Sequence record: NC_070982.1
Strand: one strand, 5' to 3'
Length of the DNA: 64,000 nucleotides
Origin: Escherichia phage vB_EcoP-101114UKE3
This document shows, piece after piece, positions 22,424-57,489 of the stretch (its first letter is position 1; the number at the start of each line of letters is the position of its first letter). The position numbers and the translations under genes are program-made. Under the pieces are notes generated by a model, which ran no database searches, was not told the origin of the DNA, and saw only the letters and a list, made by a program, of their open reading frames with translations.

Positions 22424-22446
22424 GAAAAAAGCCACCCGAAGGTGGC
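22424..22446 (-). terminator. intrinsic terminator (TTCG hairpin plus U-run)
   Basis: minus-strand gccacc-ttcg-ggtggc followed by tttttt. Confidence 0.5.
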
Positions 22447-22470
22447 TAAGCTATTACAAGGAGAGATTCA

Positions 22471-23211
22471 TTAGAAAGGGCTGTCATCTTCTTCAAAGGT
22501 AGACTGCGGCTCTTCGTTAATAGTAGGGATACTTGGAGTAGCATCTTTCTGTTCAGTATCAGAAGCTTTAGTAACTTCACGACCAGCCAGAGGGATGTTC
22601 TTAGCATCATTAGCTTGGGTCAGAAGATTACGTTGGAATGGGAAGATTGCTTGATAAGCAGCCAAGTTAGCATCAGTCTCAGCATACGGTTCGAAGAAGA
22701 TCAACTCACTACGAGGGGCACCTACAGCATCACGATATTTGGTAGGGATTGGAGTGATACTCTTAATGGAGTTTTTCTTCTCACCAGCTTTGTTTACATA
22801 GGAATTAACCAGAATGTTAACAGGCTGACCTAGCAGCATATCTTTAAACCAACCCAAATCACCTTTCAGTGCTTGAACACTTGGGTCGATCATTTTAATC
22901 AGATTCAGAATACCAGAGTTCTTAGCTCGTGGGTTTACGTCGAAAGTTTTAAACTGGCAAGCAGGACGAGGGTCCAGAGGTTTGCCTTCATTATCAGTCC
23001 CTGTTGCATCTACGCCAATCAGCTCAAAAGCTAAGTCCATACGGAAAGCTGGGTTCTTAGGGGTAACTGCTTTGGTCTTAGGGTCAATCCAAGGGTCACG
23101 ATTGTGAACACCTAAACCTACAACACGAACAATACGTGCTTCGTACTCACCATCAGGGATTACATCGTAGTTGGATTTACGGGATACAGACAGTTCAGGG
23201 ATCATAGACAT
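22471..23211 (-). CDS. ssDNA-binding protein candidate
   Basis: acidic C-terminal tail ending EEDDSPF, as in SSB and T7 gp2.5. Confidence 0.5.
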   Translation of the reverse strand: MSMIPELSVSRKSNYDVIPDGEYEARIVRVVGLGVHNRDPWIDPKTKAVTPKNPAFRMDLAFELIGVDATGTDNEGKPLDPRPACQFKTFDVNPRAKNSGILNLIKMIDPSVQALKGDLGWFKDMLLGQPVNILVNSYVNKAGEKKNSIKSITPIPTKYRDAVGAPRSELIFFEPYAETDANLAAYQAIFPFQRNLLTQANDAKNIPLAGREVTKASDTEQKDATPSIPTINEEPQSTFEEDDSPF

Positions 23212-23268
23212 ATTAATATTTCCTTATATAAATTTAAGATTGTTGCTCTCTTTGAGCGGTTTGTATAC

Positions 23269-23279
23269 TATATACATTA
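23269..23279 (-). promoter_or_regulatory. promoter-like motif TAATGTATATA (minus)
   Basis: about 60 nt upstream of SSB start. Confidence 0.45.
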
Positions 23280-23341
23280 CACTTATACAGATAAGGTTCT
23301 ATTATACTATAACCTTTTTGGTAGTAGATAATGACAAGTAG

Positions 23342-23352
23342 TAATGTATATA
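23342..23352 (+). promoter_or_regulatory. promoter-like motif TAATGTATATA (plus, divergent)
   Basis: exact motif on plus strand in 410-bp ORF-free region; no downstream plus-strand gene. Confidence 0.35.
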
Positions 23353-23625
23353 TGGTATAGCTAGTAAAGCTATTGCAGGCTTGTATATTGGGCAATCATT
23401 GTAACCCTTGCAAGTACCGAAGGGCAGGAGACACCTGCGAGATAAAATAGAGAATTAAGGAAATCCTTGATTTAGGTTGTAGGGACTCCTAGGGACTTTG
23501 ATTCTCTATTTAAAAGAATATTAATTACTTACTACCTAAATAATTAACTAACTTACTTAAACCAAACTCAAGAATAATAGATAAAAAGATTATTCCTAAG
23601 AAAGCTAAAAAGTAAAGGATATAAG

Positions 23626-24246
23626 TTACCATTCAAGTAAACCTTTAAAGTTAGTTTGTTCTACTATCCTCTGATAAGGTAAGTTAGATTCTGCTTGTTT
23701 GCTTAACACCTCTTGTACTTTATCAGTAATTGAATAATCTTTTTGTAATAAAGAAGCTACCCACTCTTTCCTACTTTCCAGTTCTTTTCTAATCTCTTGC
23801 AGAGACACAGCTCTGTAATCAATTTGTTCCATAGAAGTACAGAAGTATCTCCAATCTCTGATAGTAGAATTATGAGTATGAGCATAGATATTATACTTTC
23901 CTCTCATTTCATCAGAGTGAATAGGAATATGAGTTACCCAAAACTCTTTGTACTTATAATCACCACTGATGTGTCTAAAGACTTTCATCATATCAGGGAG
24001 AAGTTCTAATCTGTCATGGTTTCCTAAGACAAGATGTTTCTCTCCTTTTACTTCAGCGATAATATCAAGTGCATATTTCTCAAACACCCAATCACCTGTA
24101 AAGAAAGTTTTATCACGTTTAGTAACATGGTCAAACGCTGCTAAGATAGCTTTGTCGTGTTCTTCAATACTACTAAACTTCTTCCTAAAGTTACAGATGT
24201 TACGATGGCCTAGGTGACCATCACCTGCAAAATAAACTTCAGCCAT
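23626..24246 (-). CDS. calcineurin-like metallophosphoesterase
   Basis: GDGHLGH ... GNHD motifs. Confidence 0.65.
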   Translation of the reverse strand: MAEVYFAGDGHLGHRNICNFRKKFSSIEEHDKAILAAFDHVTKRDKTFFTGDWVFEKYALDIIAEVKGEKHLVLGNHDRLELLPDMMKVFRHISGDYKYKEFWVTHIPIHSDEMRGKYNIYAHTHNSTIRDWRYFCTSMEQIDYRAVSLQEIRKELESRKEWVASLLQKDYSITDKVQEVLSKQAESNLPYQRIVEQTNFKGLLEW

Positions 24247-24457
24247 TCTCGTATGTGTCCTCGTAATATGAGTAGTTGAAGGATTCAGCTTTCGTTTCAG
24301 CCTCCTCCCTATCGTCTGTTTCTAAAATAACTCTCCAGCCAAAACCCTCAGGATACTCAGCCCCTTCGTCTAGCCAGACTTTATATCGTTTAGATAGTGC
24401 AACCATCGCAGATGTAATCTCCACTGAGTGACTCTTGTAGGAGGCGAGATTGTTCAT
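24239..24457 (-). CDS. small hypothetical protein (paralog of 24974..25153)
   Basis: shared KRYKVWLDEG...GWRVILETDD pattern; start uncertain. Confidence 0.35.
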   Translation of the reverse strand: MNNLASYKSHSVEITSAMVALSKRYKVWLDEGAEYPEGFGWRVILETDDREEAETKAESFNYSYYEDTYENG

Positions 24458-24593
24458 CTGACACCAGTTTGTCAACCTCCTCTTTCAGAGCCATAAGGTC
24501 AACAAAGGTTAGTAGCTCATGCCGGTCAGCAATTATTTGGTATTTGTAATCACTGATGTGCCCTACGGTTTGTGCGACGTAAATATTAGACAT
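24390..24593 (-). CDS. small hypothetical protein
   Basis: 67-aa ORF. Confidence 0.35.
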   Translation of the reverse strand: MSNIYVAQTVGHISDYKYQIIADRHELLTFVDLMALKEEVDKLVSDEQSRLLQESLSGDYICDGCTI

Positions 24594-24817
24594 TATAAGA
24601 TCTCCCTTTGTTTAGCGTTAATGACTGACATTGCTGTGATTGGATTATTTGTTCCGAGATACTCTAGAACAGGTGGACTGCTAACTGGTTTATCAGCCTC
24701 CACATAATTCTTAACCTTGCCACCAAGAACCGCTAGAGAAGCCTGAGCTTCCGCTTCATCATAGTGAATTCGGTCAACTGTTTTCTTTCCAATCCTATAA
24801 GTGTGAACGTAAATCAT
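24593..24817 (-). CDS. small hypothetical protein
   Basis: 74-aa ORF with coupled start/stop. Confidence 0.35.
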   Translation of the reverse strand: MIYVHTYRIGKKTVDRIHYDEAEAQASLAVLGGKVKNYVEADKPVSSPPVLEYLGTNNPITAMSVINAKQREIL

Positions 24818-25020
24818 TTAACTTCCTCAATATCAACTAATTCAAAACTTCCTATTTCTTCAAGCTTAATAATCTCTTTAACTTTCTCAACAGCTTTAAT
24901 AGGGTTTTCTTCTTCTACAACTTTACACCCTGATACTTCAAGACTGCCTGTTCCACGAAGGTATAAATTCAACTTATAAACTACTTTGTAGTATCTCATC
25001 GTGCTCCCAATTTCTTTCAT
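24814..25020 (-). CDS. small hypothetical protein
   Basis: 68-aa ORF. Confidence 0.35.
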   Translation of the reverse strand: MKEIGSTMRYYKVVYKLNLYLRGTGSLEVSGCKVVEEENPIKAVEKVKEIIKLEEIGSFELVDIEEVK

Positions 25021-25153
25021 AATATCCAGAGTTGTAGTTTAGGGCGCATTTCTCGGCCTCTTCTATGTCGTCTGTGTTTAGGATATTAACCCAACCACCA
25101 ACTTCATCAAAACCCTCTTCTACCTCATTGAACCACACGCTGTATTTCTTCAT
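24974..25153 (-). CDS. small hypothetical protein (paralog of 24239..24457)
   Basis: start MKKYSVW at 25153 overlaps upstream stop (ATGA). Confidence 0.4.
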   Translation of the reverse strand: MKKYSVWFNEVEEGFDEVGGWVNILNTDDIEEAEKCALNYNSGYYERNWEHDEILQSSL

Positions 25154-25329
25154 CTTGATAAGACCCTTCCCCAATCCTTGATGTAACATCGACCATCAAC
25201 CCACTTGGTCTCTGATTTAAACTTTTGAGAGATTCTTGTTTCACAGTCTTCTTTACTGTAATCACCAAGAGCATCCATCACCCAAAGAAACAGAGCAATT
25301 ACAATAGACCAGATTAGAAACTTCTTCAT
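25150..25329 (-). CDS. small membrane protein (59 aa), not in ORF track
   Basis: MKKFLIWSIVIALFLWV...; ATGA overlaps with both neighbours. Confidence 0.35.
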   Translation of the reverse strand: MKKFLIWSIVIALFLWVMDALGDYSKEDCETRISQKFKSETKWVDGRCYIKDWGRVLSR

Positions 25330-25718
25330 CGTATCACCAGAGGCTCTTCAGAGTACACAGGAGAGGTTATTTCTACCGGAGGTGCTGCTCTAAGGTCATT
25401 AAGCCTTACGCCCTTCAGCATACCATCTAGGTGGTCCATTTTAGGGATACCTACAGGGAAGTCATCAATCCAAACATCCACAAAGAAACCCAAGCTCTGA
25501 GTGACGGAATCCTTCTGAACACCATTGCAAAAGATAACAGGAATATCTAGACTTGCTGCATCTGCTAGAAGCTCCTCATTTGAATACCCATTAGGTTGAG
25601 CAAAACGATAGGTGACAATACGTACATCATGTCCACGAGATTTCATAAGACCTACAATGTGGGTCCACATCTCTTTGTCCACTGTAAAAGTGTCATCATA
25701 ATCTAAACCAATATTCAT
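25326..25718 (-). CDS. HAD-superfamily phosphatase (5'-nucleotidase-like)
   Basis: N-terminal DYDDT (DxDxT) motif. Confidence 0.5.
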   Translation of the reverse strand: MNIGLDYDDTFTVDKEMWTHIVGLMKSRGHDVRIVTYRFAQPNGYSNEELLADAASLDIPVIFCNGVQKDSVTQSLGFFVDVWIDDFPVGIPKMDHLDGMLKGVRLNDLRAAPPVEITSPVYSEEPLVIR

Positions 25719-25734
25719 ATTAGCCTCTTAGACA

Positions 25735-25756
25735 AGAAAAGCCACCCGAAGGTAGC
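25735..25756 (-). terminator. intrinsic terminator (TTCG hairpin plus U-run)
   Basis: minus-strand gcuacc-uucg-gguggc with G-U pair only on this strand, then uuuucuug. Confidence 0.45.
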
Positions 25757-26002
25757 TTATTTATTCTGTGTTTCCAGTTCGCTGATACGAACTTTCAAAC
25801 CGTTAATCTCAGCCTGAGCAGCTTCTAGTTTAATTAGAGCTTCTTCAGCGTCAGCTTCTGTTTGAAGAACCGCAGTGGTTAGTTCGTATAAAGCTTGGCG
25901 GAGAGAATCTTTTCCCATAGCATGAATCTGTGCAACAAAGAATTGCTTACCTTCCGTGGTTTCCAAAGTCTCTTTTAATTCTTTAGATGTTAAAGTCATC
26001 AT
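25757..26002 (-). CDS. hypothetical coiled-coil protein
   Basis: 81-aa helical ORF. Confidence 0.4.
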   Translation of the reverse strand: MMTLTSKELKETLETTEGKQFFVAQIHAMGKDSLRQALYELTTAVLQTEADAEEALIKLEAAQAEINGLKVRISELETQNK

Positions 26003-26381
26003 TACTCCCTTTCATAAATTTTAAGAACTGTACCGCCATCTGCTTCAATCTGAGCAACTACTTCATCGCGCTCTTCATCAGAATAAACCAGTTGGTTGTG
26101 AAATTTGCCTGTACTATCTTGGAAATACACATTCCATTTTGGAGCAGGTTTACGAATCAAATCCATCATTGATCTTTCTCCTCTCGTTCAACCCATGTAT
26201 GGAAAAGCTCCCCATACACTTTGGCATCATCAAAACGTCCTTCTTCCTGTGCGAGTTTTTGTTGCTTCAAGCACCATTCAGAACTTTTTACTTCTTCCAC
26301 TTCCTTGTCTCCTTAAAAAGAACTAATCAATAAGACTAGTTCATTTCATAATACGATTCAGCTCTTCCACTGAACTAATCA

Positions 26382-26693
26382 CTACTTCTCCACCACAAAG
26401 AGGTTAACTTCAATGAAAGTTTCGTATTGTGTTGACTCCTGCTTACGGGTGTAGTAGAAATGACGACCTTCTAATGCACCTCCGTACTGAGTGGCACATC
26501 TTTTAACCATCTCTTTTATCACATCTACAACTGATTCGCCTTTCCACGGACGTAACCCCTGAGTTGGGACTTTTGCTGTACAGGTTACTTGTGTGTAACC
26601 TACATCTTGTAGAGATATCTCAAGAATCAGCTTTGCCCAAGCATCAAAATTAAGCTTGGGGTTATATTTAACTTCAGTTTTGATATCAATCAT
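26382..26693 (-). CDS. hypothetical protein
   Basis: 103-aa ORF coupled downstream of DNA polymerase. Confidence 0.4.
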   Translation of the reverse strand: MIDIKTEVKYNPKLNFDAWAKLILEISLQDVGYTQVTCTAKVPTQGLRPWKGESVVDVIKEMVKRCATQYGGALEGRHFYYTRKQESTQYETFIEVNLFVVEK

Positions 26694-28537
26694 TAGTGAG
26701 TATGATTCCAGTTTAATCCAATCTTACAATCTGATGCAAGAGGACATTCCATCTTGAGGTATTCCCCTGCTTTACGAACACATTCTTCAGTGAGGGTACG
26801 AAGTTTGTTAACATCATCACGATGTACAGTGAACTGTCCTTCATCATGCATGTCAATAACCTTCGCACAACGAACACCATCCCGCTCAATCCATTTATTG
26901 AGGAATAGCATTGCATACTTCATAACAATCGCCCCAGCGCTCTGTAAGAGTGTATTTAAGGCTTTATGGACCATAACCTTTCCAGTTGCATCTCTTCTCA
27001 TTGTAATACGACGTCCATCCACACCGTAGATATATCCACTTTGCGCTTTCTCTGTCATACGTTCAATAAGGATTGCAATACAAGGGTTCTCTGCTAAGAA
27101 TCTTGCTCTCATGATAGCCCCTTCGTCAGAGCCACCACCTACAATACTTCCTAACTTAGCGTCACCTGCCCCATAGTTAAAGGCATAGATAAACGTTTTA
27201 GCATTATCACGAGTAGGAAGGCCAGCAAGTTTTTGGTTATGTGAGTGAATATCTCCTTCTAAAAGAATATCTCTATACATAACAGCAGAAGCTAGACCAC
27301 GTTCAGCTTCTCGTTTCTTAGCCGGGTTGTTTTCTCGCTCTGCTTCAGCGAGCATCTCACGACATTCTTTAATAAGGTAGTGAGCTAGCATCCTCAGCTC
27401 AAGACCAGAGCCATCGTAACCTAAGAAGATTTCACGACCAGCAGGAACATAGAACTTATAGGCACCTACGGGTTTGTCTTTCTTGCCCGGTTTTCCCACT
27501 TCGTAGATAATGTTAGTACCCTTTCGTACGTAACACCCATCAGGGATATGGTTGGTAATGATGAAAGGATGGTTATGACTATCGTCTGAGGAATAGTCAG
27601 ATTGAAAAAGACTGCGGCACTCGTGACCAAACAAACCGCGAGAAGGAATATTAACAACAATGCGATGTTTAAAACGAAATGTCGGAGTAGCGCAGCTATT
27701 AGCTTCGGCGGACAACTTACCATCTTTACGTTCCTTGTCGATAAGCCCGCTAATCAAACCTAGCCTGTGAGCCGCTACAACGCGTCTCTTAAGCAAACTT
27801 CCTACACCCCCTAGCTCACCCCCAAGCCCCTCTTCAAGAGTCTCCTCAAGGTTTGTAGGGGCTGTGGGCCACTTGTTTGATGTAGCCAAAGCTTTTTTGA
27901 TTTCATCAAAGGTTACAGGTTTCTTCCTATTCGGATTAAGACCTAAACCACTGACGTAGGCTTTCATGTAGTTGACAGTGTGATAACGGAAATGTTTATC
28001 CAAAAATCTTCGGATATCAGCATCTATCATCTCCGCTGTCTGTTTCTCTTTAGCATTACCTCGAATCCAAGCAGAATACCATGCAGAGTATGTACCATAC
28101 TTCTTCATAGCTCTACGGATTTCAAATGTATTCCAAGGTTTCTTAGAATAATTCCACTCTGGAGGTATGAAGCCCTCATCCATCAAGGCTTCTTTAATAC
28201 GTGCATCTTTCGATGGGTCGAAGTCTACATACTCAACGCAAGTAAACGCCCCACCGATATCTTCTCTTTTAAGACCAACCCTATCGCAATAGAGCTGAGG
28301 CCACTTCTGTAAAGCACCTGATTTCTTAAAAGGCTTAGCATAAGTTGAACCATCCACCCGCATTTTAGGGAGGAGAGGAATCAGTTCTTTATCAATATTG
28401 ACAATAATCTCTTTGAGAAGGTGAACAAACCACCGAGCGTTTCTTCTGTTGAAGTTGACTCCATGCTTCGCTTGTTTTGAGATTATATCAGCGACTGTCA
28501 TCTCCGTTATGAAAGGTAACTTATCAGGGTTATCCAT
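26693..28537 (-). CDS. DNA polymerase, family A (polymerase domain only)
   Basis: motif A FLGYDGSGLELRMLAHY, motif B RDNAKTFIYAFNYGAG, motif C VHDE; ATG 28537 with AAGGAG SD (track start 28540 is GTG). Confidence 0.85.
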   Translation of the reverse strand: MDNPDKLPFITEMTVADIISKQAKHGVNFNRRNARWFVHLLKEIIVNIDKELIPLLPKMRVDGSTYAKPFKKSGALQKWPQLYCDRVGLKREDIGGAFTCVEYVDFDPSKDARIKEALMDEGFIPPEWNYSKKPWNTFEIRRAMKKYGTYSAWYSAWIRGNAKEKQTAEMIDADIRRFLDKHFRYHTVNYMKAYVSGLGLNPNRKKPVTFDEIKKALATSNKWPTAPTNLEETLEEGLGGELGGVGSLLKRRVVAAHRLGLISGLIDKERKDGKLSAEANSCATPTFRFKHRIVVNIPSRGLFGHECRSLFQSDYSSDDSHNHPFIITNHIPDGCYVRKGTNIIYEVGKPGKKDKPVGAYKFYVPAGREIFLGYDGSGLELRMLAHYLIKECREMLAEAERENNPAKKREAERGLASAVMYRDILLEGDIHSHNQKLAGLPTRDNAKTFIYAFNYGAGDAKLGSIVGGGSDEGAIMRARFLAENPCIAILIERMTEKAQSGYIYGVDGRRITMRRDATGKVMVHKALNTLLQSAGAIVMKYAMLFLNKWIERDGVRCAKVIDMHDEGQFTVHRDDVNKLRTLTEECVRKAGEYLKMECPLASDCKIGLNWNHTH

Positions 28538-28553
28538 CACCCACTCCTTATAG

Positions 28554-28907
28554 TTATTGGTATATTAAGTCTGTGAATGCTTGGTTGTCTTCAACAATAT
28601 CTAAAGCTTCATATGAATCAGACAATTCATCCACATAAAAGACTGCTGGAATATCTTCTGCTCGCTGTCTACGAGATTCCCTTTGTTCATTGATATTTCT
28701 TTGAACCTGTGCAAGTTTCATACCCCACACCTGCTCATACAACTCTGGATATTTGTCACTAACCACTACATAATTTCGAGCTGGTTGGTTTCTATTAATC
28801 TTCGCTGTCAACTCAATAAACTGGCGAAACTCTTGAATAGAGAGGTTGTCATGAATATTATCCCATTTGAGAACGCAGTGACGTTCTAGGCATTGAGGTA
28901 CTGGCAT
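28554..28907 (-). CDS. hypothetical protein
   Basis: 117-aa ORF. Confidence 0.4.
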   Translation of the reverse strand: MPVPQCLERHCVLKWDNIHDNLSIQEFRQFIELTAKINRNQPARNYVVVSDKYPELYEQVWGMKLAQVQRNINEQRESRRQRAEDIPAVFYVDELSDSYEALDIVEDNQAFTDLIYQ

Positions 28908-28910
28908 AAC

Positions 28911-29180
28911 TTACTCCACTGTCGGGAATGGTTTTAGGTTGTTCATGGCTGTACGAACATCAGCACAGATTTCAGGATCACGATAAGAGAGGAATTTACC
29001 ATCCTTACCACGAATCATTACATTAGTCCGTGATGTTTTATTAGGCAATAAAGAAATCCCTCCAATAAGATGGTTGGTAGGGTGTTGTCCTTGATTAACC
29101 TTGTAGTCATGAGTCTGAGCGTCACCATTAAAGAGATGATCACGAATTTGGATTAAGCTAATCTTCATATTATGCACCAA
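28911..29180 (-). CDS. small protein, tandem paralog
   Basis: shares TxRTNVxxRGxDGKFxSxRD...NLKPFP with next gene. Confidence 0.4.
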   Translation of the reverse strand: MVHNMKISLIQIRDHLFNGDAQTHDYKVNQGQHPTNHLIGGISLLPNKTSRTNVMIRGKDGKFLSYRDPEICADVRTAMNNLKPFPTVE

Positions 29181-29421
29181 AGTTAGGGAAAGGTTTCAGA
29201 TTTTCAATAGACTTAGCAATACGCTTAGGAACAGCCTTATCACGGAAGGAGATGAACTTTCCATCAGGACCACGAAGGGCTACATTAGTACGAGCTGTTG
29301 TTTTGTTAAACTGAATCATCTCAACAGAGCTTGTAACATTTTCTACAGGAAAAGTATAGCTCTCAGTTGTGTTCAGAGAAGGGAGGAAATCAGTTACAGT
29401 GATGTAAGTTACTTTAGACAT
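29170..29421 (-). CDS. small protein, tandem paralog
   Basis: start MSKVTYI at 29421 after terminator hairpin. Confidence 0.4.
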   Translation of the reverse strand: MSKVTYITVTDFLPSLNTTESYTFPVENVTSSVEMIQFNKTTARTNVALRGPDGKFISFRDKAVPKRIAKSIENLKPFPNFGA

Positions 29422-29442
29422 ATTTATTACCTTAGGTTCTAT

Positions 29443-29472
29443 AAAAGAAAAGGCCACCCGAAATGGGTAGCC
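29443..29472 (-). terminator. intrinsic terminator
   Basis: minus-strand ggcuaccc-auuuc-ggguggcc (G-U on this strand) then uuuucuuuu. Confidence 0.5.
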
Positions 29473-29477
29473 TTATA

Positions 29478-29792: not shown

Positions 29793-29826
29793 CATAACTC
29801 CTTAATATATCAGTGTACACTAAGGA

Positions 29827-29836
29827 GTATACATTA
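29827..29836 (-). promoter_or_regulatory. promoter-like motif TAATGTATAC
   Basis: variant of TAATGTATATA about 35 nt upstream of start at 29792. Confidence 0.35.
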
Positions 29837-29839
29837 TGT

Positions 29840-32375: not shown

Positions 32376-32389
32376 CCTTGAATTCTTCC

Positions 32390-40718: not shown

Positions 40719-40742
40719 TAGCCTCCTCTTTCGAAGAGGCTA
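40719..40742 (-). promoter_or_regulatory. intergenic RNA hairpin with GAAA tetraloop
   Basis: perfect 10-bp stem on minus strand (C-A mismatch on plus strand); no U-run. Confidence 0.35.
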
Positions 40743-48479: not shown

Positions 48480-48487
48480 ATTCGCCT

Positions 48488-49705: not shown

Positions 49706-49716
49706 CTTTTACCTCT

Positions 49717-50243: not shown

Positions 50244-50446
50244 ACAACCTCTTCTTTGAGCTTAAAAAAGGACTCTCCTAAGAGAGCCAAGCTTTAAGGC
50301 CAATTAAATAGATATCACCCAATATCTGTGGATAACCTGCTCTTAAAATATTCTATCCGACGGATGTTCGAGGATTATTCCTCTCCCTAGCATCGGCCCC
50401 ATACGGGAAAGATTAAATTAAGTTTAGGTTAGTTGAGCCAGAATAG

Positions 50447-50489: not shown

Positions 50490-50733
50490 CTGTGGCTCCG
50501 TCGAATCGGAGGATTGCTGCTGGAACAGGGTATGCTTCCAGATCTTCATCCAGTCGGTATAGATGCCCTGTACTTAAATTTACAGCTGTTACTGGCTTAG
50601 AGTGGCCTCCAGCCTGTATGGAAGGAACTCTGATAAAGAACTCTTCTGGATATTCAACAGAGTGGAACACACTTCCTGAATAAAGATCTTTTATTTTAGA
50701 AGTTTGTTTAGGAGTTTTATCAGCAATTTTCAT
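50485..50733 (-). CDS. small protein, five-member paralog family
   Basis: L-x-x-G-[DS]-x-F ... V-x-L-S-x-G pattern shared with 51854, 52124, 54939, 56130 ORFs. Confidence 0.45.
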   Translation of the reverse strand: MKIADKTPKQTSKIKDLYSGSVFHSVEYPEEFFIRVPSIQAGGHSKPVTAVNLSTGHLYRLDEDLEAYPVPAAILRFDGATE

Positions 50734-50966
50734 TACAGACCTTTCTTAGCACGATCTTTGGCAGTTTTGCCAGTGCGGATACGATGGGAAACATTAACCA
50801 GCTCGCCACCTTCGACGATGGTTACGCTTTTGTTTTTCGCAATATCAAACACAGTTTTCTCTGTGCCGCCCAGACGAATCTGTTTAGGCTCACTGTGGGT
50901 CTGAGTTGATTTAGACTGGAACTGGAACGGCTGACGGATGGCATCAATTGCGCTAACTTTAGACAT
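50733..50966 (-). CDS. small hypothetical protein
   Basis: 77-aa ORF. Confidence 0.4.
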   Translation of the reverse strand: MSKVSAIDAIRQPFQFQSKSTQTHSEPKQIRLGGTEKTVFDIAKNKSVTIVEGGELVNVSHRIRTGKTAKDRAKKGL

Positions 50967-50994
50967 GTTTTTATTACCTTACATTAAAGAGAGA

Positions 50995-51408
50995 TTAAAC
51001 AACGAATTGGAACGCTTCGTATCCAAACTTGTATAAGAAATCGTGTTTGAACTTTACTACACGACCACGATCGCGGAAAGCTTTCAGGCGACTGCTGAAC
51101 CCAACCATTGGCTCAGGGTCAATAGGGCTACGAATCTTCATAGCTACAGAGTGCAGCTTGAAGCGTTTACCAGTGCTACAGGCCATCATCACATACTCCA
51201 TACGAGTAGTCCAGATGTTGAGCACCATGCTTGTTTTCTCCGCTGACCAACCAGTCTTGCGGGCGATTTCTTTATGGACATTAAGCTCCAAAGGAAGAGG
51301 GAATTGCTTGTTGAATGAAGCCGGATATAGCTTGACCAGAAGGTCAATGTTTTCTTTATACGTTAAGTAAGCCAATTTCTTGCTTACGTTAGGGAATTTC
51401 CCAGACAT
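50995..51408 (-). CDS. ProQ/FinO-domain-like RNA-binding protein
   Basis: KENIDLLVKLYPASF..PLPLELNVHKEIARKTGWSAEKTSMVLNIWTTRMEYV...GKRFKLHS aligns by pattern to E. coli ProQ N-terminal domain. Confidence 0.45.
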   Translation of the reverse strand: MSGKFPNVSKKLAYLTYKENIDLLVKLYPASFNKQFPLPLELNVHKEIARKTGWSAEKTSMVLNIWTTRMEYVMMACSTGKRFKLHSVAMKIRSPIDPEPMVGFSSRLKAFRDRGRVVKFKHDFLYKFGYEAFQFVV

Positions 51409-51606
51409 TTTTGAAGCTCCAAAACAGCGCCGAAAAGAGAGGCGTCATAGTAGCTAAAAGGAGGAGAGAAGAGGGCTTATTTACTTGCCTTTTTCTGTCC
51501 GTTAATGTACCAGATAACTGAACCGTCAGGCTGTCGTTGACCGAAGCCTTTCAAGTTAACCATTTCTTCTTCAGAGTAGGCACGTTTTCTCACTGATTTT
51601 CTCCTG

Positions 51607-51864
51607 TCAGTAGAAGGTGTGTGTAGAGTCGTCGTTCATAGATAACCAAACGAAGAAGACAATCACACAGAAAGCAATAATACCGAGAGTTGCAAGGATT
51701 ATAGTGTTAGCTAATGTGATATCTAACACGCTTTGCAGATATATAAAGAACTGTACGACACCACATACCATCAGCACAACCCCAACGACAATGAGGAGCC
51801 AATATGTGCAGAGAAGGACTGCATCTAATAGTGATACATACTTTGGATGATCTTTATGTCTCAC
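51607..51864 (-). CDS. small membrane protein
   Basis: two or three TM segments. Confidence 0.4.
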   Translation of the reverse strand: MRHKDHPKYVSLLDAVLLCTYWLLIVVGVVLMVCGVVQFFIYLQSVLDITLANTIILATLGIIAFCVIVFFVWLSMNDDSTHTFY

Positions 51865-52120
51865 TGATCTTTTCCACTAAATCCAGAGTTGCTGATTCAA
51901 ATACAACACCAACTACCATATTAGGTGCCATATTACGAACGTATCCGCTCTGCATAGACACGGCCCGAGAGTATTCAGAACCGTTAGAACTTTTGTTTAC
52001 CTTCATGTAAAGGGTTTGCTCTTTATCTTCTTTCAGAGTAAAGAAAGAGCCGGGAAGAAGCCTCTGAACAGTCAGAGGGATATCTGCAACATGAGTCTTA
52101 TTGATAGTAAGAACTGTCAT
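51854..52120 (-). CDS. small protein, five-member paralog family
   Basis: LLPGSFFTLKEDKEQTLYMKV. Confidence 0.45.
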   Translation of the reverse strand: MTVLTINKTHVADIPLTVQRLLPGSFFTLKEDKEQTLYMKVNKSSNGSEYSRAVSMQSGYVRNMAPNMVVGVVFESATLDLVEKISET

Positions 52121-52123
52121 TGC

Positions 52124-52378
52124 TTATTCCTTAATAGTTGCTTCAGCTTTAATAGGAATAACAGCAACATCTTTACGAGGTGCTGTCGCTCGACCTGTGT
52201 TAAGGCAGGCTACAAGTCTATGCTCGTCCGCACCCTTGATGCAGAGTCGAGTTGAGAACTCAGTAGACAGCAAGATGTACAAATCATCATCTTCACTGTT
52301 AGGGTACATGAAGCAATCCCCAAGTCGTAAAGCACTGAGAGGTATTGCACTCTTACCTGCTGGTTTATTAACTTTCAT
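52124..52378 (-). CDS. small protein, five-member paralog family
   Basis: LRLGDCFMYPNSEDDDLYILLS. Confidence 0.45.
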   Translation of the reverse strand: MKVNKPAGKSAIPLSALRLGDCFMYPNSEDDDLYILLSTEFSTRLCIKGADEHRLVACLNTGRATAPRKDVAVIPIKAEATIKE

Positions 52379-52654
52379 TTTACCACCTTTAGTTATGGAC
52401 CAATTTATGAGAGAACTCTCGGAAGAATGCTTTCATAAATAGGGGGAGGGGACGAATCCTCCCATATCCTATTAATTAATATTGCATGTAAGATCTAACA
52501 ATTCGATGCTGTAGTGGATAGCGTAAAACGCTTACCGGCATTAAACCCAGCCCATGAGGGGCTTATGTGAATAAAATGCTCAACATTGAGCGGTTAGTTG
52601 ATAGGAGATCTGAAGTCCTATCTCAAAGGACTCTCGTAAGAATCCTTCACGATA

Positions 52655-52909
52655 TCACTTAGTAAGAAAGATTATCAACTTATCCGCTACCCAGCCTATT
52701 AACATAAGGACAGGTAAGAAGAAGATAAAGATCAGCATAAAAGGCCAGAAGAATATCACCGTCCAAATAGAAAGTATATCAGGCTGACCACTCCATGAGC
52801 AGTGGAAGAAGTTGTAGAGTGTATTGGTTTTGAAGCACCATTTAACTACAATGGCTGCTAACCACCAACCAATAACATAAATCAGGAGGACATACGCTGC
52901 TGTAACCAT
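52655..52909 (-). CDS. small membrane protein
   Basis: multiple TM segments. Confidence 0.4.
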   Translation of the reverse strand: MVTAAYVLLIYVIGWWLAAIVVKWCFKTNTLYNFFHCSWSGQPDILSIWTVIFFWPFMLIFIFFLPVLMLIGWVADKLIIFLTK

Positions 52910-53136
52910 TCACCGTTCCATTGATAGTTGCGAGTTACCACGTTTCCGTGGATAAGGAAGTGCTGGCGGCGAAGGATATCTTTAACGTTGTAGTAGGCAG
53001 CGTTACCGAGATGACCTTCTTTAATAAGCCAACGAAGATTACGGATATCAACCAACAGCATTTTTACTTGCTGTTGGCATGAAGTTTGAGCTGCTGTTTC
53101 AAGTAGAGCTTTCGTATCAGAATAATGACCGGACAT
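52882..53136 (-). CDS. hypothetical protein
   Basis: 84-aa ORF. Confidence 0.35.
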   Translation of the reverse strand: MSGHYSDTKALLETAAQTSCQQQVKMLLVDIRNLRWLIKEGHLGNAAYYNVKDILRRQHFLIHGNVVTRNYQWNGEWLQQRMSS

Positions 53137-53137
53137 A

Positions 53138-53464
53138 TCACCACTCCTTACCCTTTGTTGTTACAGAGCCACTACACTGTACACCACGGGAGATAAAGTC
53201 ATAACGCGACCAATCACCTTGTGTCTCCATATCACGCCCTACATAAGCCTTCTCATCAACAGCACCGCCGTTGGAACAAGAAGCACCAGCATAACGCATA
53301 TCAATTTCACCACTAGGAATCTTCTCCCCGCTGTGCCAACGGGAAACACAGACACCTTCTACCGATAATGCACACCATCCATCAGGACGATGCTGTACGC
53401 AGCCTGTAAGAGCTACACAGGCGATAAAGATACAGGTTAAGGTAATTACACCACCCCAGCTCAT
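53138..53464 (-). CDS. secreted protein/lipoprotein candidate
   Basis: signal peptide with LTGC lipobox-like motif. Confidence 0.5.
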   Translation of the reverse strand: MSWGGVITLTCIFIACVALTGCVQHRPDGWCALSVEGVCVSRWHSGEKIPSGEIDMRYAGASCSNGGAVDEKAYVGRDMETQGDWSRYDFISRGVQCSGSVTTKGKEW

Positions 53465-53601
53465 AATCCCTCCTGAAGCGCCTTACGGCGGCTATCTCGC
53501 CAAGCCATCCATAGGTAGGTTTTAAGTTCTTCTCTTTCTTCTTCGCTGAACAAAGGAGAAGTAAAGATATCATCGAACCACTCATTAAACTCAGGGGTCA
53601 T
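53461..53601 (-). CDS. small acidic protein (46 aa), replaces track ORF 53382..53585
   Basis: AGGAGG SD 4 nt before ATG 53601; TGA overlaps ATG of downstream gene. Confidence 0.35.
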   Translation of the reverse strand: MTPEFNEWFDDIFTSPLFSEEEREELKTYLWMAWRDSRRKALQEGL

Positions 53602-53740
53602 AAACCCTCCTATTTGATTTGGTGGACTATCTGGAATCGAACCAGAAGCTCACTAAGAAAGCAATTCCCACTGTTATAAAAGCACTTGCCTCAACAGGGA
53701 TACACTAACTTTGGTGCCGCACCCATACTAGCCCTAAATG

Positions 53741-53816
53741 TGGTGCGCCCTACAGGACTCGAACCTGTAACCAATAGCTTAGAAGGCTACTGCTCTATCC
53801 GTTGAGCTAAGAGCGC
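53741..53816 (-). tRNA. tRNA-Arg(UCU): tRNA-Arg (anticodon UCU), CCA encoded
   Basis: hand-folded cloverleaf: 7-bp acceptor, D arm GCTC/GAGC, anticodon loop CTTCTAA, T arm ACAGG-TTCGAGT-CCTGT, discriminator A plus CCA. Confidence 0.85.
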
Positions 53817-53824
53817 GGAATTGT

Positions 53825-54034
53825 TTAACTGAAGATACGCAAGGCCACATCATGACCAATATGACCGGGAACTTTATGCTGCTCTATTTTCAAGCAGCGC
53901 TTACAGATACGAGATACACGAGACTCTTTTCTCTCTACTGGAGTGTCTTTAGCGTGAGTGATGTGTAGGTTTTCAGTGATCACCCACTCGTGTTTACATC
54001 CAGAATCTTCGGGCTTTTTCTTACGAAAGAACAT
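53825..54034 (-). CDS. small zinc-ribbon protein (triplet member)
   Basis: start MFFRKKK; CKHEW ... CKRC. Confidence 0.4.
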   Translation of the reverse strand: MFFRKKKPEDSGCKHEWVITENLHITHAKDTPVERKESRVSRICKRCLKIEQHKVPGHIGHDVALRIFS

Positions 54035-54042
54035 AACACCTC

Positions 54043-54207
54043 TTAGATCAGATCTGTTTTCTTGTGCAGACCACACACTTTACAGCGAGAGTAGATACGC
54101 AACCCTTGTCGCTCTCTGTCAGTAAGTTTATTTGTGATCGTCAGTTCATAAGTATGAAGATCTTCCCACTCATGGAAATGAAATAGACGTTTGAACCATT
54201 TGATCAT
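54043..54207 (-). CDS. small zinc-ribbon protein (triplet member), not in ORF track
   Basis: 54 aa MIKWFKRLFHFHEW...CKVCG; near-duplicate N-terminus of 54217..54402. Confidence 0.4.
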   Translation of the reverse strand: MIKWFKRLFHFHEWEDLHTYELTITNKLTDRERQGLRIYSRCKVCGLHKKTDLI

Positions 54208-54216
54208 AATGATTCC

Positions 54217-54402
54217 TTAGATTACATCACGATGACTAATATCACCACACACCTTACACTGAATAATGTAACGTGTGCCCTTGTCATTGTTCCCATCTGA
54301 ATCCGTATAGACCAGAGGACGGGTGTTAATAATCTTCCAATCATGACAATGGAAGACACGCTTTAGCCACTTAATCATATTAAGCACACGCCGGTAATTC
54401 AA
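54217..54402 (-). CDS. small zinc-ribbon protein (triplet member)
   Basis: MIKWLKRVFHCHDW...CKVCG. Confidence 0.4.
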   Translation of the reverse strand: MNYRRVLNMIKWLKRVFHCHDWKIINTRPLVYTDSDGNNDKGTRYIIQCKVCGDISHRDVI

Positions 54403-54637
54403 TTAACTGAGGAGTACGACAAGGGCCATCCTCATACACACCTACCAGTGTTGGCATGTAAGGCCCAGCGCACTGGTATTCATCGAACAGTTCATTGTAA
54501 GTAGGCTTCCACTTCCAAGCCCACACATAACCCATTCGATCAATGGCAATGTAACGAGTGTTCAGAGGAACCTGCATCATCACATCACCAACTGCTATTA
54601 CTTTCGTAATAACTGCTGCTCGGAAGTTTGTCTTCAT
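54380..54637 (-). CDS. hypothetical protein
   Basis: 85-aa ORF. Confidence 0.35.
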   Translation of the reverse strand: MKTNFRAAVITKVIAVGDVMMQVPLNTRYIAIDRMGYVWAWKWKPTYNELFDEYQCAGPYMPTLVGVYEDGPCRTPQLIELPACA

Positions 54638-54942
54638 GACTTTGCAGCCTCCATCATTTTATTCATTTTAGCCACACCTTTACGGATAAGAGGCATAAAT
54701 TCATCAGCCAGTTCAGTGGATAAAAGTTTAAGCCCGCCTGATTTAATACCGTTCACCGCCTTCTCAACTTCATCCGACAGCAATGTCATTGTTAACCACG
54801 GGGATTTTATTACCACAGTAAAGCCCGGTTCATACCGCGAGTGACTGTAGGTGAACTCTAAATGAGTAACACCGGGCATCTTAGACATTTGAGCACGGAT
54901 ATCTACATTAGGGTTGCAGCGAGTTGAAGATGAAATTGTCAT
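54634..54942 (-). CDS. hypothetical protein
   Basis: 102-aa ORF. Confidence 0.35.
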   Translation of the reverse strand: MTISSSTRCNPNVDIRAQMSKMPGVTHLEFTYSHSRYEPGFTVVIKSPWLTMTLLSDEVEKAVNGIKSGGLKLLSTELADEFMPLIRKGVAKMNKMMEAAKS

Positions 54943-55190
54943 GGCGCTTTAATCTCAATCTGAACGTTGACGACGAATACAGTATGGTTTGCACTGTACA
55001 CTGAAGTGCCTATGATTGGCTTATCATCACTGAGGATTTCAACAGCGTGCTCAAGGTTAATCTTCAGATGAAGACGCCCTGATTCCATGAAGAAATCACC
55101 AGCACGTATCTCACCGAACTTAGCTGGCACACCGATAGAGGGTATCAGTATGTCAGTGCGACCTTTACGGTCAAATAAACGATTGAACAT
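54939..55190 (-). CDS. small protein, five-member paralog family
   Basis: IRAGDFFMESGRLHLKIN. Confidence 0.45.
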   Translation of the reverse strand: MFNRLFDRKGRTDILIPSIGVPAKFGEIRAGDFFMESGRLHLKINLEHAVEILSDDKPIIGTSVYSANHTVFVVNVQIEIKAP

Positions 55191-55199
55191 ATCACCCCC

Positions 55200-55409
55200 T
55201 TATGTAATATCAACCTCAAACCAACAGGTAAGAGCTTTTTCATTGTTGCGTTTTGGCTCAAAGGATTTAACAACCGATAACACTCGGCGCTGTTCTCCAT
55301 CAAACCAGATAGTTTCATCTTTTTCAGGGAGTAGGTTGTGTGCAGCACAAACAATCTCACCTAGTACAACCTGTCTGCCATCTTGCTTACGAACTAAACG
55401 AATGTTCAT
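55200..55409 (-). CDS. small hypothetical protein
   Basis: start MNIRLV after terminator hairpin. Confidence 0.35.
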   Translation of the reverse strand: MNIRLVRKQDGRQVVLGEIVCAAHNLLPEKDETIWFDGEQRRVLSVVKSFEPKRNNEKALTCWFEVDIT

Positions 55410-55452
55410 AACAACCTCTCTTGTTAGTTTAAGTAAGAGTTGTCCCTTAATT

Positions 55453-55483
55453 AAAACAACAAAGGCCACCCCTAAGGGCAGCC
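55453..55483 (-). terminator. intrinsic terminator
   Basis: minus-strand ggcugccc-uuag-ggguggcc with two G-U pairs (C-A on plus strand), then U-rich run. Confidence 0.5.
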
Positions 55484-55489
55484 TCTTAT

Positions 55490-55693
55490 TTAAGCGCAAG
55501 CACTACGCAGTTTGTTATTCAAGAAGCGATCTTCTGCATTATACAGGAATGCATAGAACAACTCTTTTGCTACATCCCGATCGCAATTGAGACATTTAGA
55601 GATCTGTAACAACAAACCATCACGACTATTAGGATGGTCAATTATCGCAAGACGAATAATCTCACGAATACCAATGTCATGCTCAGCCGCCAT
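55490..55693 (-). CDS. small hypothetical protein
   Basis: 67-aa ORF. Confidence 0.35.
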   Translation of the reverse strand: MAAEHDIGIREIIRLAIIDHPNSRDGLLLQISKCLNCDRDVAKELFYAFLYNAEDRFLNNKLRSACA

Positions 55694-56083
55694 AGAACCA
55701 ATCACCCTGACGTTTACGAATGTTAGTTGTCAGACGAAGCATGGCAGACTCAATCTTCAGAGCACCATTTGCTACTGCATCCATACGTTCAGGACGGTTC
55801 ATACGTTTGGTTGTCTTTTTCATAATGTTCTCTCTTTATTGATGGAGGCAGGATTGCCAGTTAATATAAAGGGAAGCCCTACACGTTAAGACTTCCGCTT
55901 GTACAAACTGTCGAGAACTCTCTACCCCTAGATTGTTCTCTATCCCAAACCGATACATACCCCTACATATCGGAAAGCTGTTCGAAAATTAACAGGTTTT
56001 AGTCTATCACCGGATGTTTGAGACAAGTCTCGCCCTAGCGGTGAGCCATATGGCGTTGAGATTATAGTTAATTGAGGAACACC

Positions 56084-56130
56084 CTCACATAGCCCTCTGA
56101 TAAACACAAGGGCTATAAGTCGATGTTACT
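56084..56130 (-). repeat. conserved hairpin element, copy B
   Basis: CACATAGCCCTCTGATAAACACAAGGGCTATAAG directly after stop of 56130..56360. Confidence 0.5.
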
Positions 56131-56360
56131 TAACCATTAATATGAGTTACTTGAACATCAGGTACAGGGATAACTTCATGGTCTTCCTGTAATTGGAACA
56201 GTGTCCCCTGACTAAGACCAACCACACGATGCATATCGTTAAGTCTAGTGTCTGTCTTTAGGTAGACATTTTCAGAGTTAGTTGGTAAACGGAACACATC
56301 GCCCGGACGTAACTCACTGAGCTTTTTAGTAACAACTACAGAGAAGAGATTAATTTTCAT
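56130..56360 (-). CDS. small protein, five-member paralog family
   Basis: LRPGDVFRLPTNSENVYLKT ... VVGLSQGTLFQLQED. Confidence 0.45.
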   Translation of the reverse strand: MKINLFSVVVTKKLSELRPGDVFRLPTNSENVYLKTDTRLNDMHRVVGLSQGTLFQLQEDHEVIPVPDVQVTHING

Positions 56361-56533
56361 TTGATTAACACCAAATCAGTACGACGTTCGAAGGAAGGGG
56401 AGGATTCACCATTCCACTGAACAAGATAACAGAGAACACCATCAATCGTTGTTCTCCGACGAATAACACCTGTAACAGTTCCACCAACAAGACGAACGGT
56501 GTCGCCAACGGTAAATTTAACCTTTGAGCGCAT
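56357..56533 (-). CDS. small hypothetical protein
   Basis: start MRSKVKF with AGGAG SD. Confidence 0.35.
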   Translation of the reverse strand: MRSKVKFTVGDTVRLVGGTVTGVIRRRTTIDGVLCYLVQWNGESSPSFERRTDLVLIK

Positions 56534-56822
56534 CTCCTGTTTCCTCATTCTGGCGTTTAATTTCTTCAGTGAGTTGCTTATTAAGATCTTGAATACGCTT
56601 AATCTCCCAACCCAAAGAAGCCAAACGATCGTTACGTGCTTCGATTTGTTCCTGCATTTTAAGTAATTTGGAACGAACATCAGCATTAAAAACTTCTTCT
56701 TGCTTAAGAAGGAACTCGTAACGACGCTTCCAGCTTGCTGATTTATTTCTTAAAATAATAAACCCTAGAGTAGAAACCGTTACAGTGAGTACGAAAAGGA
56801 ACTTATAAACCTCTAAAGACAT
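56517..56822 (-). CDS. membrane-anchored coiled-coil protein
   Basis: N-terminal TM then helical E/K-rich region. Confidence 0.4.
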   Translation of the reverse strand: MSLEVYKFLFVLTVTVSTLGFIILRNKSASWKRRYEFLLKQEEVFNADVRSKLLKMQEQIEARNDRLASLGWEIKRIQDLNKQLTEEIKRQNEETGDALKG

Positions 56823-57023
56823 ATCTTTATCCTCTTAAAGTAAGATATTATAAGAAATATTATTTAGAATTTATTATTTCTAAACTTAATTCCTATCAAT
56901 AATTTTCAGAGGTCTATATACAGTCATTACCTCTGGTCCCAAATCACTTCCACTTTTTACAGAGAAAATCATAAGTGTGTGATTTATAAGGAAATTTAGT
57001 TTGTCAATATTGGCACTTATGAA

Positions 57024-57410
57024 TCAGTCACGGGAGCTGTTATTGAACACTAAATCACCACAATACATCGGATTGGTATACCACTTTGGCACCCCTTCGC
57101 TCTTACTCTGAAAGTATGTACCGCTGTACAAAGGCACATAACCTTTCTTCAGTGCACGCCTTGCAAGCCGCTCGCTCTCTCTGATTGATTTCTTTATCAG
57201 AGGGTTATCATCACGAATTAGCTTTACATAACGCTTAAAAGGTTTCTCCTTCTTTAATAGGACGGGTATCCACTCGAACTGGTTTCGTTGATTTATAACC
57301 TGCTCGGCAGTCAGTTTTCGTTGTGACATTCTGTTTATTACGGTATCCGCTACTAATGCTTTGCAAGCGGTTGGCTGATTCCCTGCCTCATAATAAATAG
57401 TCAATGTCAA
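57024..57410 (-). CDS. SleB/CwlJ-like cell-wall hydrolase domain protein
   Basis: IYYEAGNQPTACKALVADTVINR matches IYAEARGEP..AV..V.NR core motif. Confidence 0.5.
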   Translation of the reverse strand: MTLTIYYEAGNQPTACKALVADTVINRMSQRKLTAEQVINQRNQFEWIPVLLKKEKPFKRYVKLIRDDNPLIKKSIRESERLARRALKKGYVPLYSGTYFQSKSEGVPKWYTNPMYCGDLVFNNSSRD

Positions 57411-57462
57411 AAGTAGCTGGGCTGTCGTTATCAGAACTTACTACCCCCTTGTTTTACGGGCA

Positions 57463-57489
57463 TAAAAAAGCCCCATCCGAAGACGGGGC
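57463..57489 (-). terminator. intrinsic terminator (TTCG hairpin plus U6)
   Basis: minus-strand gccccguc-uucg-gauggggc (G-U only on this strand) then uuuuuu. Confidence 0.55.

Follow-up and report, generated by a model that had tools for sequence, protein, structure and literature searches.

Strand-specific G·U pairing and covariation in intergenic hairpins of a Kuravirus genome, including probable Rho-independent terminators

The intergenic hairpins in the 64,000-nucleotide stretch of DNA analyzed here (the window), from Escherichia phage vB_EcoP-101114UKE3 (NC_070982.1), very probably act as RNA elements of the early/middle transcripts on the minus strand and the late transcripts on the plus strand, with four of the five hairpins named in a first-pass annotation and about eight others serving as Rho-independent terminators. 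The original observation, that these stems carry G·U pairs on the transcribed strand only, was confirmed, and its interpretation as selection on RNA is supported, while the biology is ordinary. Terminator hairpins with G·U pairs have long been known, as have C(UUCG)G hairpins; G·U pairs within terminator stems are a described feature (e.g., PMC8060035), and the sense-strand wobble pattern is not specific to the five named hairpins. The window is 100% identical to Escherichia phage vB_EcoP-101114BS3 (MZ234015), a phiEco32-like Kuravirus, and the CDS coordinates and gene gaps used here are those of MZ234015.

The five hairpins, at 25739, 29450, 55461, 57470, and 40719, are present as claimed, the intervals first given for them taking in a flanking A-run that is the U-tract of the minus strand. 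All are intergenic with minus-strand genes on both sides, and each lies shortly after a stop codon in a gap of 40 to 80 nt, co-oriented with the flanking CDSs. Every imperfect stem position in the five is A·C on the plus strand and G·U in minus-strand RNA, which is why the minus-strand RNA folds better. Folding of both strands, proposed earlier as a check, gave unequal stabilities, with minus- versus plus-strand minimum free energies of -11.3 versus -6.6 kcal/mol at 25739, -17.4 versus -13.6 at 29450, -18.8 versus -10.0 at 55461, -16.2 versus -11.3 at 57470, and -19.1 versus -12.1 at 40719, an advantage of 3.8 to 8.8 kcal/mol. Minus-strand z-scores against dinucleotide shuffles ranged from -3.7 to -5.4. 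On the transcribed strand all five have the GC-rich stem (~5 to 14 bp) and 3- to 8-nt loop of an intrinsic terminator hairpin, with sense free energies of -11.3 to -19.1 kcal/mol.

The label of terminator, first given to all five, suits the four in which a U-tract immediately follows the stem. The putative terminator after gene 026 (25730 to 25758, minus strand) has an 8-bp stem (25758 to 25739; AAGCUACC/GGUGGCUU) with one U·G pair, a UUCG loop, and the tail UUCUUGUCU, and that after gene 034 (29441 to 29474, minus) has a 10-bp stem (29474 to 29450) with one U·G pair, an AUUUC loop, and the tail UUCUUUUAU. After gene 092 (55449 to 55486, minus), an 11-bp stem (55486 to 55461) with three G·U pairs, two of them in tandem, is capped by UUAG, and its tail, GUUGUUUUA, follows three U that form the closing pairs of the stem. 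The fourth (57463 to 57489, minus) has an 8-bp stem (57489 to 57470; GCCCCGUC/GAUGGGGC) with one G·U pair, a UUCG loop, and the tail UUUUUUA. The GenBank record calls a 29-amino-acid CDS at window positions 57431 to 57520, on top of this last hairpin; the call is probably spurious.

Further candidate terminators occur on the minus strand. One after gene 107 (58946 to 58982), absent from the first-pass list, has a 12-bp stem with two G·U pairs, a GAAA loop, and a U-tract, and one at 50271 (50262 to 50288) has a 7-bp stem with one G·U pair, a UUAG loop, and the tail CUUUUUU. Others are perfect: that after gene 015 (22424 to 22447; hairpin 22430), a 7-bp C(UUCG)G stem with a UUUUUU tail; a tandem pair (57678 to 57696 and 57655 to 57670, within 57646 to 57696) with a U-run after each; and 61760 (61751 to 61780), 7 bp with a UUUUUU tail. 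One stem sequence, GCYRCC...GGYGGC, is common to four terminators. In phage SU7 (MZ342906), ARNold-predicted terminators lie at the orthologues of 25739, 29450, 50271, 57678, 58955 (the hairpin after gene 107), and 61760 (PMC8399022); 55461, 57470, and 40719 are not annotated there, and otherwise we see no difference of substance. A GC-rich stem of 7 to 12 bp, a 4- to 5-nt loop, a 3′ U-tract, placement just after a stop codon, and co-orientation with genes are features held in common with the Rho-independent terminators of E. coli and of its phages, among them the ones predicted for SU7, SU10, and phiEco32.

The first-pass annotation contrasted these imperfect minus-strand stems with perfect hairpins in the late, plus-strand operon. 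This stands for three hairpins with UUCG loops and perfect stems of 6 to 7 bp: 686 to 701 (6 bp, directly upstream of the next late gene's ribosome-binding site), 2868 to 2885 (7 bp, preceding the next late gene), and 7549 to 7575 (6 bp with a strong U-tract, a probable late-operon terminator). It does not stand for 14137 to 14181, where a 15-bp stem (14137 to 14171) with two plus-strand G·U pairs is followed by a U-tract, nor for 4654 to 4670, with one plus-strand G·U pair, and as a rule it is further contradicted by the perfect minus-strand hairpins 22430, 57655, 57678, and 61760. At the apex of hairpin 14137 lies TAATGTATA (14150 to 14158), the gp36-sigma promoter consensus (PMC8948821 and PMC4331800). 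We considered hairpin 4654 as a frameshift signal and rejected it, since no canonical slippery heptamer lies upstream and the reported site in SU10, GGGAAAG in the head gene, is elsewhere.

A strand-symmetric scan, in which G·T and A·C were handled alike, found wobbles on the sense strand only in 17 intergenic hairpins and on the antisense strand only in 1. Relative to the ratio of 0.57 obtained from shuffles this gives P = 6e-4, and relative to the background of 0.745 in coding sequence, P = 0.036. When polarity was taken from the U-tract alone, nine wobbles fell on the U-tract strand and none on the opposite strand. C(UUCG)G hairpins whose stem reaches at least 5 bp (25739, 57470, 22430, 686, 2868, and 7549) are on the sense strand in 6/6 cases, while 0/10 antisense CTTCGG hexamers have a stem of more than 3 bp. 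The wobble side, the U-tract side, and the side of the UUCG loop are independent markers of polarity, and the three agree with one another and with gene orientation, in support of the claim that the wobble side reveals minus-strand transcript polarity. That polarity was already known from gene orientation and U-tracts; as a strand indicator the wobble side is usable but redundant. Unrelated viral contigs obey the same wobble rule, 18:3.

Hairpins within genes provide the background for these counts. In early/middle coding sequence, sense-only G·U hairpins outnumber antisense ones 41:14 (~3:1), and the 41 compare with 20.9 in synonymous-codon shuffles, an excess limited to early/middle genes and absent in late genes. 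Among relatives these coding hairpins are not conserved, with 92 disrupting versus 13 compensatory changes. The excess hairpins lack U-tracts (mean of 2.5 T per 8 nt; expectation, 2.3) and do not favor the ends of genes, and together with the lack of conservation this led us to reject them as hidden terminators or gene-boundary elements. Since hairpins that are not conserved show the bias, part of the asymmetry is background, and the asymmetry of any single hairpin is weak evidence of function. In bacteria, Katz and Burge (2003) reportedly described coding regions as being under selection for local secondary structure of the RNA. The twofold sense-only excess here is similar, but it is confined to early/middle genes, and the individual hairpins are not kept among relatives.

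Conservation distinguishes the intergenic hairpins from this background. We compared 21 hairpin families (80 distinct variants) across 13 related Kuravirus genomes, mostly from GenBank records, IMG/VR containing five Kuravirus genomes only. The hairpins are kept although their flanks are 70 to 95% identical, and they are conserved much better than those flanks. Across the families, 87 positions are sense G·U and 6 are A·C. Among stem substitutions, compensatory double changes numbered 11 and one-sided transitions that created or removed a G·U pair numbered 30, against at most 6 changes to A·C, most of these at terminal pairs or in stems with indels. In orthologues of the coding hairpins the corresponding changes were 80:60 toward G·U, and the difference is significant by Fisher test (P = 0.0025 for column counts; P = 1.6e-10 for structure-based counts). 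Column-wise counts came from MAFFT alignments, in which stems with indels (2868, 7549, 33471, 44970, and 58207) gave spurious A·C or mismatch states, so the per-sequence hairpin analysis is more reliable.

The individual changes fit the same pattern. At 25739, an A-U pair is replaced by G-C in KBNP1711, NJ01, and PE006 with the U·G retained, and at 57470 a U-A pair is replaced by G-C in NJ01, TH06, and PE006 with the G·U retained. The wobble position of 29450 is C-G in TH06, and G·U becomes G-C at 55461 in phiEco32 and Ec3, the loop of the relatives being UUCG. Hairpin 686 shows two compensatory double changes (in ECBP2, NC-B, TH34, and TH42), and 40719 has gained further sense-strand wobbles, from U-A to U·G in TH34 and TH42 and from C-G to U·G in KBNP1711; a longer outer helix around 40719 could be aligned in two relatives only. 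Pairing on the transcribed strand has therefore been maintained through covariation, and the first-pass proposal of selection at the RNA level gains support from both the double changes and the one-sided transitions through sense G·U. We also asked whether the U·G common to three similar terminators is conserved for itself; it changes once (in TH06) and its neighbors twice, a record that adds nothing to the overall conservation of the hairpins.

Could the asymmetry have arisen from composition or mutation bias instead? If G exceeds C on the sense strand and C-to-T deamination acts on the non-template strand, chance palindromes would decay preferentially into sense-strand G·T. The early/middle region does have a sense-strand GC skew of +0.09, shuffles alone yield 1.3:1 in favor of sense G·U, and both the coding hairpins and the changes in their orthologues lean the same way. 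We nevertheless consider this account improbable, given that the bias is far stronger in the conserved intergenic hairpins than in coding sequence, that stems have acquired compensatory double substitutions and are better preserved than their flanks, and that the wobble, U-tract, and UUCG sides coincide. Still harder to credit is that the inverted repeats act in DNA, for instance as operators bound by protein or as cruciforms, with an incidental RNA fold. They are indeed DNA palindromes, and that at 14137 is centered on a promoter consensus, but such elements give no reason for imperfections to be solely G·T on one strand or for UUCG and a T-run to lie on that same strand, and the substitutions keep RNA pairing rather than DNA sequence.

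A more serious alternative, possible but clearly less probable than termination, is that the hairpins are active in RNA mainly as elements of mRNA stability, processing, or translation, such as exonuclease barriers or structures near ribosome-binding sites. Precedents exist among C(UUCG)G hairpins. In phage 7-11, an intergenic hairpin with a GUUCGG loop was proposed to boost production of the phage sigma factor, and a primer-extension stop there was attributed to processing or stalling (PMC8948821). As cited in that paper, Tuerk et al. (1988) described hairpins of the form (X)nCUUCGG(Y)n, with G-U allowed, mainly between phage genes, and C(UUCG)G hairpins that stabilize T4 gene 32 mRNA. The six sense-strand C(UUCG)G hairpins of the window resemble these in having a UUCG loop, C-G closure, and a complementary stem, while 29450, 55461, and 40719 have other loops and fall outside the class, as do window hairpins with UUAG, GAAA, or 5-nt loops generally. 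According to the same citing paper, some of the T4 hairpins stabilize mRNA rather than terminate transcription; here most are followed by U-tracts. Hairpins 686 and 2868 are followed by only 3 to 4 U and abut the next ribosome-binding site, and so may terminate leakily or not at all. Moreover, more than 10 hairpins follow one another in a single 44-kb block of co-oriented genes, so that most must be leaky. On the other side, 25739, 29450, 55461, and 57470 have a canonical U-tract right after a GC-rich stem, and orthologues of the first two were called as terminators by ARNold. The two roles are also compatible, because a hairpin that ends transcription shields the 3′ end as well.

Hairpin 40719 (40719 to 40742, minus strand), a conserved GAAA-capped stem of 10 to 11 bp with one or two G·U pairs in the gap between genes 059 and 058, is a candidate for such a role. 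Its stem is followed by GUUCGAAUUUAA, and as this is not a U-tract we do not file it as an intrinsic terminator. With the same RNA-level signature as the others, it is more likely an intercistronic mRNA hairpin, which might, for instance, block 3′ exonucleases or influence mRNA stability or translation. Hairpins 44970 and 58207, absent from the first-pass list, likewise have no U-tract. It is conceivable, if unlikely, that these three hairpins, the excess coding hairpins, and the common GCYRCC...GGYGGC stem belong to a phage-specific program acting on mRNA; early/middle transcripts would then be shielded from host RNases, or a phage factor would read the common hairpin to control read-through.

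For the hairpins that we regard as terminators, we infer termination and its efficiency from these features; in the literature searched we found no transcript 3′ ends (Term-seq or RNA-seq) for Kuravirus phages. The phage is not known to encode an RNA polymerase and is transcribed by that of E. coli. A GC-rich stem with a stable UUCG, UUAG, or GAAA cap, followed directly by a U-tract, would fold in the nascent RNA within the exit channel of the polymerase, after which the weakness of the rU:dA hybrid would free the transcript. Because pairing would be needed in RNA only, transitions giving G·U on the transcribed strand would be tolerated or fixed and those giving A·C removed, leaving DNA palindromes imperfect in one strand-specific way. 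On this reading, the hairpins delimit transcription units at about a dozen places in a Kuravirus genome that has no terminators annotated in its own record. They have little importance beyond annotation, and the ~3:1 bias of the coding control is the more useful lesson. An Rfam scan of the whole window matched tRNA-Arg only, which places these hairpins outside the known RNA families. One of the conserved hairpins, 33471, loses little stability when its antisense RNA is folded instead (-17.8 against -16.0 kcal/mol).

Over two 5-kb stretches, the window is 100% identical to Escherichia phage vB_EcoP-101114BS3 (MZ234015.1), a phiEco32-like phage classified in Gordonclarkvirinae, Kuravirus; positions in that record were converted to window positions by adding 9800. 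The plus strand carries the late structural genes, from 1 to about 18640, and the minus strand about 110 early and middle genes, from about 18750 to 63300. A tRNA-Arg gene (anticodon TCT; 53741-53816, minus strand) sits amid the early genes, as has likewise been reported for SU7 and SU10. Phages of this type encode no RNA polymerase and rely on the host enzyme, first with sigma-70 and later with gp36, a phage sigma factor with the promoter consensus tAATGTAtA (PMC8948821, PMC4331800, PMC4281155).

Five minus-strand intergenic hairpins, designated here like all others by position (25739, 29450, 55461, 57470, and 40719), had been described in the first-pass annotation as carrying G·U pairs only in minus-strand RNA. 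All five were found, and their pairing bears this out: wherever a stem departs from Watson-Crick pairing, the minus strand has G·U and the plus strand A·C. Minus-strand stems have 8, 10, 11, 8, and 10 to 11 pairs, respectively, with UUCG, AUUUC, UUAG, UUCG, and GAAA loops. Rather than being equally stable on both strands, all five favored the minus strand in ViennaRNA (minus/plus, −11.3/−6.6, −17.4/−13.6, −18.8/−10.0, −16.2/−11.3, and −19.1/−12.1 kcal/mol). The late plus-strand hairpins 686, 2868, and 7549 have perfect stems, as claimed. This contrast between imperfect minus-strand and perfect plus-strand stems holds for the named hairpins but fails as a rule, given plus-strand G·U pairs in two plus-strand hairpins (two at 14137-14171 and one at 4654-4670) and perfect minus-strand hairpins at 22430, 57655, 57678, and 61760. 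The actual rule is that wobbles, if any, sit on the transcribed strand.

We extracted 21 hairpins with orthologues from 13 Kuravirus genomes, obtained from IMG/VR (ECBP2, phiEco32, KBNP1711, NJ01, and one metagenomic genome) and GenBank (SU7, NC-B, TH34, TH42, TH43, TH06, PE006, and Ec3). The hairpins were nearly intact, while their flanks were only 70 to 95% identical. In 80 distinct variants, the sense strand had 87 G·U and 6 A·C stem positions, and the more stable RNA was sense in 61 variants and antisense in 6. Compensatory double changes occurred in 686 (U-A to C-G and C-G to U-A), 25739 (A-U to G-C), 57470 (U-A to G-C), and 44970 (C-G to U-A). One-sided transitions via G·U were seen in 14137 (five), 40719 (two), and 50271 (two) and also in 29450, 55461, 55872, 57678, and 58955. 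By alignment column, 11 changes were compensatory, 30 created or removed G·U, and 6 gave A·C, the last mostly reflecting indel misalignment or terminal pairs. Orthologue changes in nonconserved coding hairpins divide 80:60, in contrast to the conserved hairpins (Fisher P = 0.0025 by column counts and 1.6e-10 by structure-based counts). Such a pattern is what selection on RNA pairing leaves behind, and mutation bias is insufficient by itself to account for it.

We also scanned the window for hairpins, giving G·T and A·C mismatches equal treatment to avoid favoring either strand. In the early/middle region, 58 hairpins had wobbles in minus-strand RNA only, versus 21 ± 3 in dinucleotide shuffles, and plus-only hairpins matched expectation (15 versus 16); no such hairpin excess was found in the late region by the same scan. 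Intergenic hairpins had sense-only wobbles in 17 cases and antisense-only wobbles in 1. For this bias, P is 6e-4 with the shuffle ratio as reference but only 0.036 with hairpins inside coding sequence. The latter are themselves biased: in minus-strand genes (19613-63300), sense-only and antisense-only G·U hairpins numbered 41 and 14, against 20.9 ± 4.2 and 15.2 ± 3.4 expected from synonymous-codon shuffles. Antisense-only hairpins were thus at expectation, and sense-only hairpins were at about twice the shuffle level (41 was reached in 0 of 60 shuffles); no sense-only excess over synonymous-codon shuffles was found in late coding sequence. The coding excess is real against codon shuffles. A diffuse mRNA folding tendency fits it better than discrete elements do, since these hairpins are dispersed, without U-tracts, and not conserved among relatives; they also show no gene-end preference. 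Given the coding bias and the P value of 0.036, the wobble side of one lone hairpin is therefore weak evidence; that of the whole set is not.

Polarity was also assigned solely by the side bearing a T-run. In the window, wobbles fell on the U-tract strand rather than the other by 9:0; distant relatives gave 10:0 and unrelated viral contigs 18:3. The rule holds for phage terminators generally. Furthermore, all six C(UUCG)G hairpins in the window whose stems reach 5 bp or more were on the sense strand, while none of 10 antisense CTTCGG hexamers had a stem longer than 3 bp. This loop asymmetry assigns the perfect stems 686, 2868, 7549, and 22430 the same RNA-level polarity, which the first-pass annotation had seen only in the wobbles.

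Hairpins 25739, 29450, 55461, and 57470 are GC-rich and lie just 3′ of a stop codon, with a U-tract immediately after the stem, and match Rho-independent terminators in every sequence feature. Termination there is what we infer, since a literature search found no published 3′-end mapping for phiEco32-like phages. The SU7 record carries ARNold-predicted terminators at orthologues of 25739, 29450, 50271, 57678, 58955, and 61760 (PMC8399022), and SU10 is reported to have four Rho-independent terminators, similarly arranged (PMC4281155). G·U pairs within intrinsic terminator stems have been described (e.g., PMC8060035), and (X)nCUUCGG(Y)n hairpins, with G-U allowed, occur chiefly in phage intergenic regions according to Tuerk et al. 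(1988), as cited in PMC8948821. No Rfam family was found for these elements. With short U-runs and the next ribosome-binding site directly adjoining, 686 and 2868 may at most be leaky terminators. A core, GCYRCC...GGYGGC, is common to four minus-strand terminators (22431-22446, 25741-25756, 29453-29471, and 55465-55482; 0.05 matches expected by chance), three of which share an identical U·G wobble at an identical position; shared ancestry or convergence toward a favorable stem could account for it. A 29-aa coding sequence annotated in GenBank, 101114BS3_100 (57431-57520, minus strand), overlaps the terminator at 57470-57489 and its U-tract and is probably a spurious gene call.

Hairpin 40719 is conserved, with sense-only wobbles like the other named hairpins, but its stem is followed by GUUCGAAUUUAA, and the label of terminator was not borne out. 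A role between cistrons in mRNA stability or translation is more likely, similar to those suggested for C(UUCG)G-type hairpins in T4 and for one hairpin in phage 7-11 (PMC8948821). Altogether, the first-pass observation is confirmed and its interpretation supported, with caveats for 40719 and the background bias; the pattern reflects terminator biology that is ordinary and already known, in a phage family that is likewise known. Another conserved minus-strand hairpin with sense-only G·U and no U-tract, at 58207-58230, is directly followed by TGATATAAT, a sequence similar to an extended −10 promoter element; none of the 13 relatives has its TG, and in the phiEco32 group the final T of the hexamer is missing as well.

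A terminator-like 15-bp hairpin with a U-tract at 14137-14181 (plus strand) carries the gp36 consensus TAATGTATA at its apex (14150-14158). It is kept in 13 genomes, with 5 of 5 stem changes passing via plus-strand G·U. A start 6 to 8 nt 3′ of TAATGTATA would fall within the 3′ arm; transcripts initiated upstream would contain the whole hairpin/terminator, and those from its own promoter only the 3′ arm. Minus-strand copies at 29836-29828 and 23279-23271 (motif regions 29797-29836 and 23271-23279) precede, respectively, gene 034, which ends at terminator 29450, and gene 015, which ends at terminator 22430. With a promoter motif upstream and a terminator at the gene end, each gene looks like a single-gene cassette. 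The predicted 5′ leader after the 29836 motif (ACUCCUUA...UAAGGAGU) pairs with the gene 034 Shine-Dalgarno sequence. A fourth copy (23342-23350, plus strand) is antisense to early/middle genes.

At 4654-4670 (plus strand), 131 nt inside a 1006-aa late gene, the hairpin GGGGGGC-AAT-GCCCCTC is followed by UUUCUUAU and reads TGGNAPL in frame. Of 13 relatives, 11 have it unchanged, although their flanks are 80 to 84% identical, and it may be an internal attenuator or reflect mere protein constraint. Finally, an AT-rich 16-bp inverted repeat, CTTATCAATAATTACT...AGTGATTATTGATAAG, lies at 59972-60011 within an ORF-poor stretch (59900-61800); the only ORFs annotated around the repeat are tiny and on the plus strand. 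In SU10, early sigma-70 promoters were placed in a spacer that separates early genes 120 and 121 (PMC4281155).
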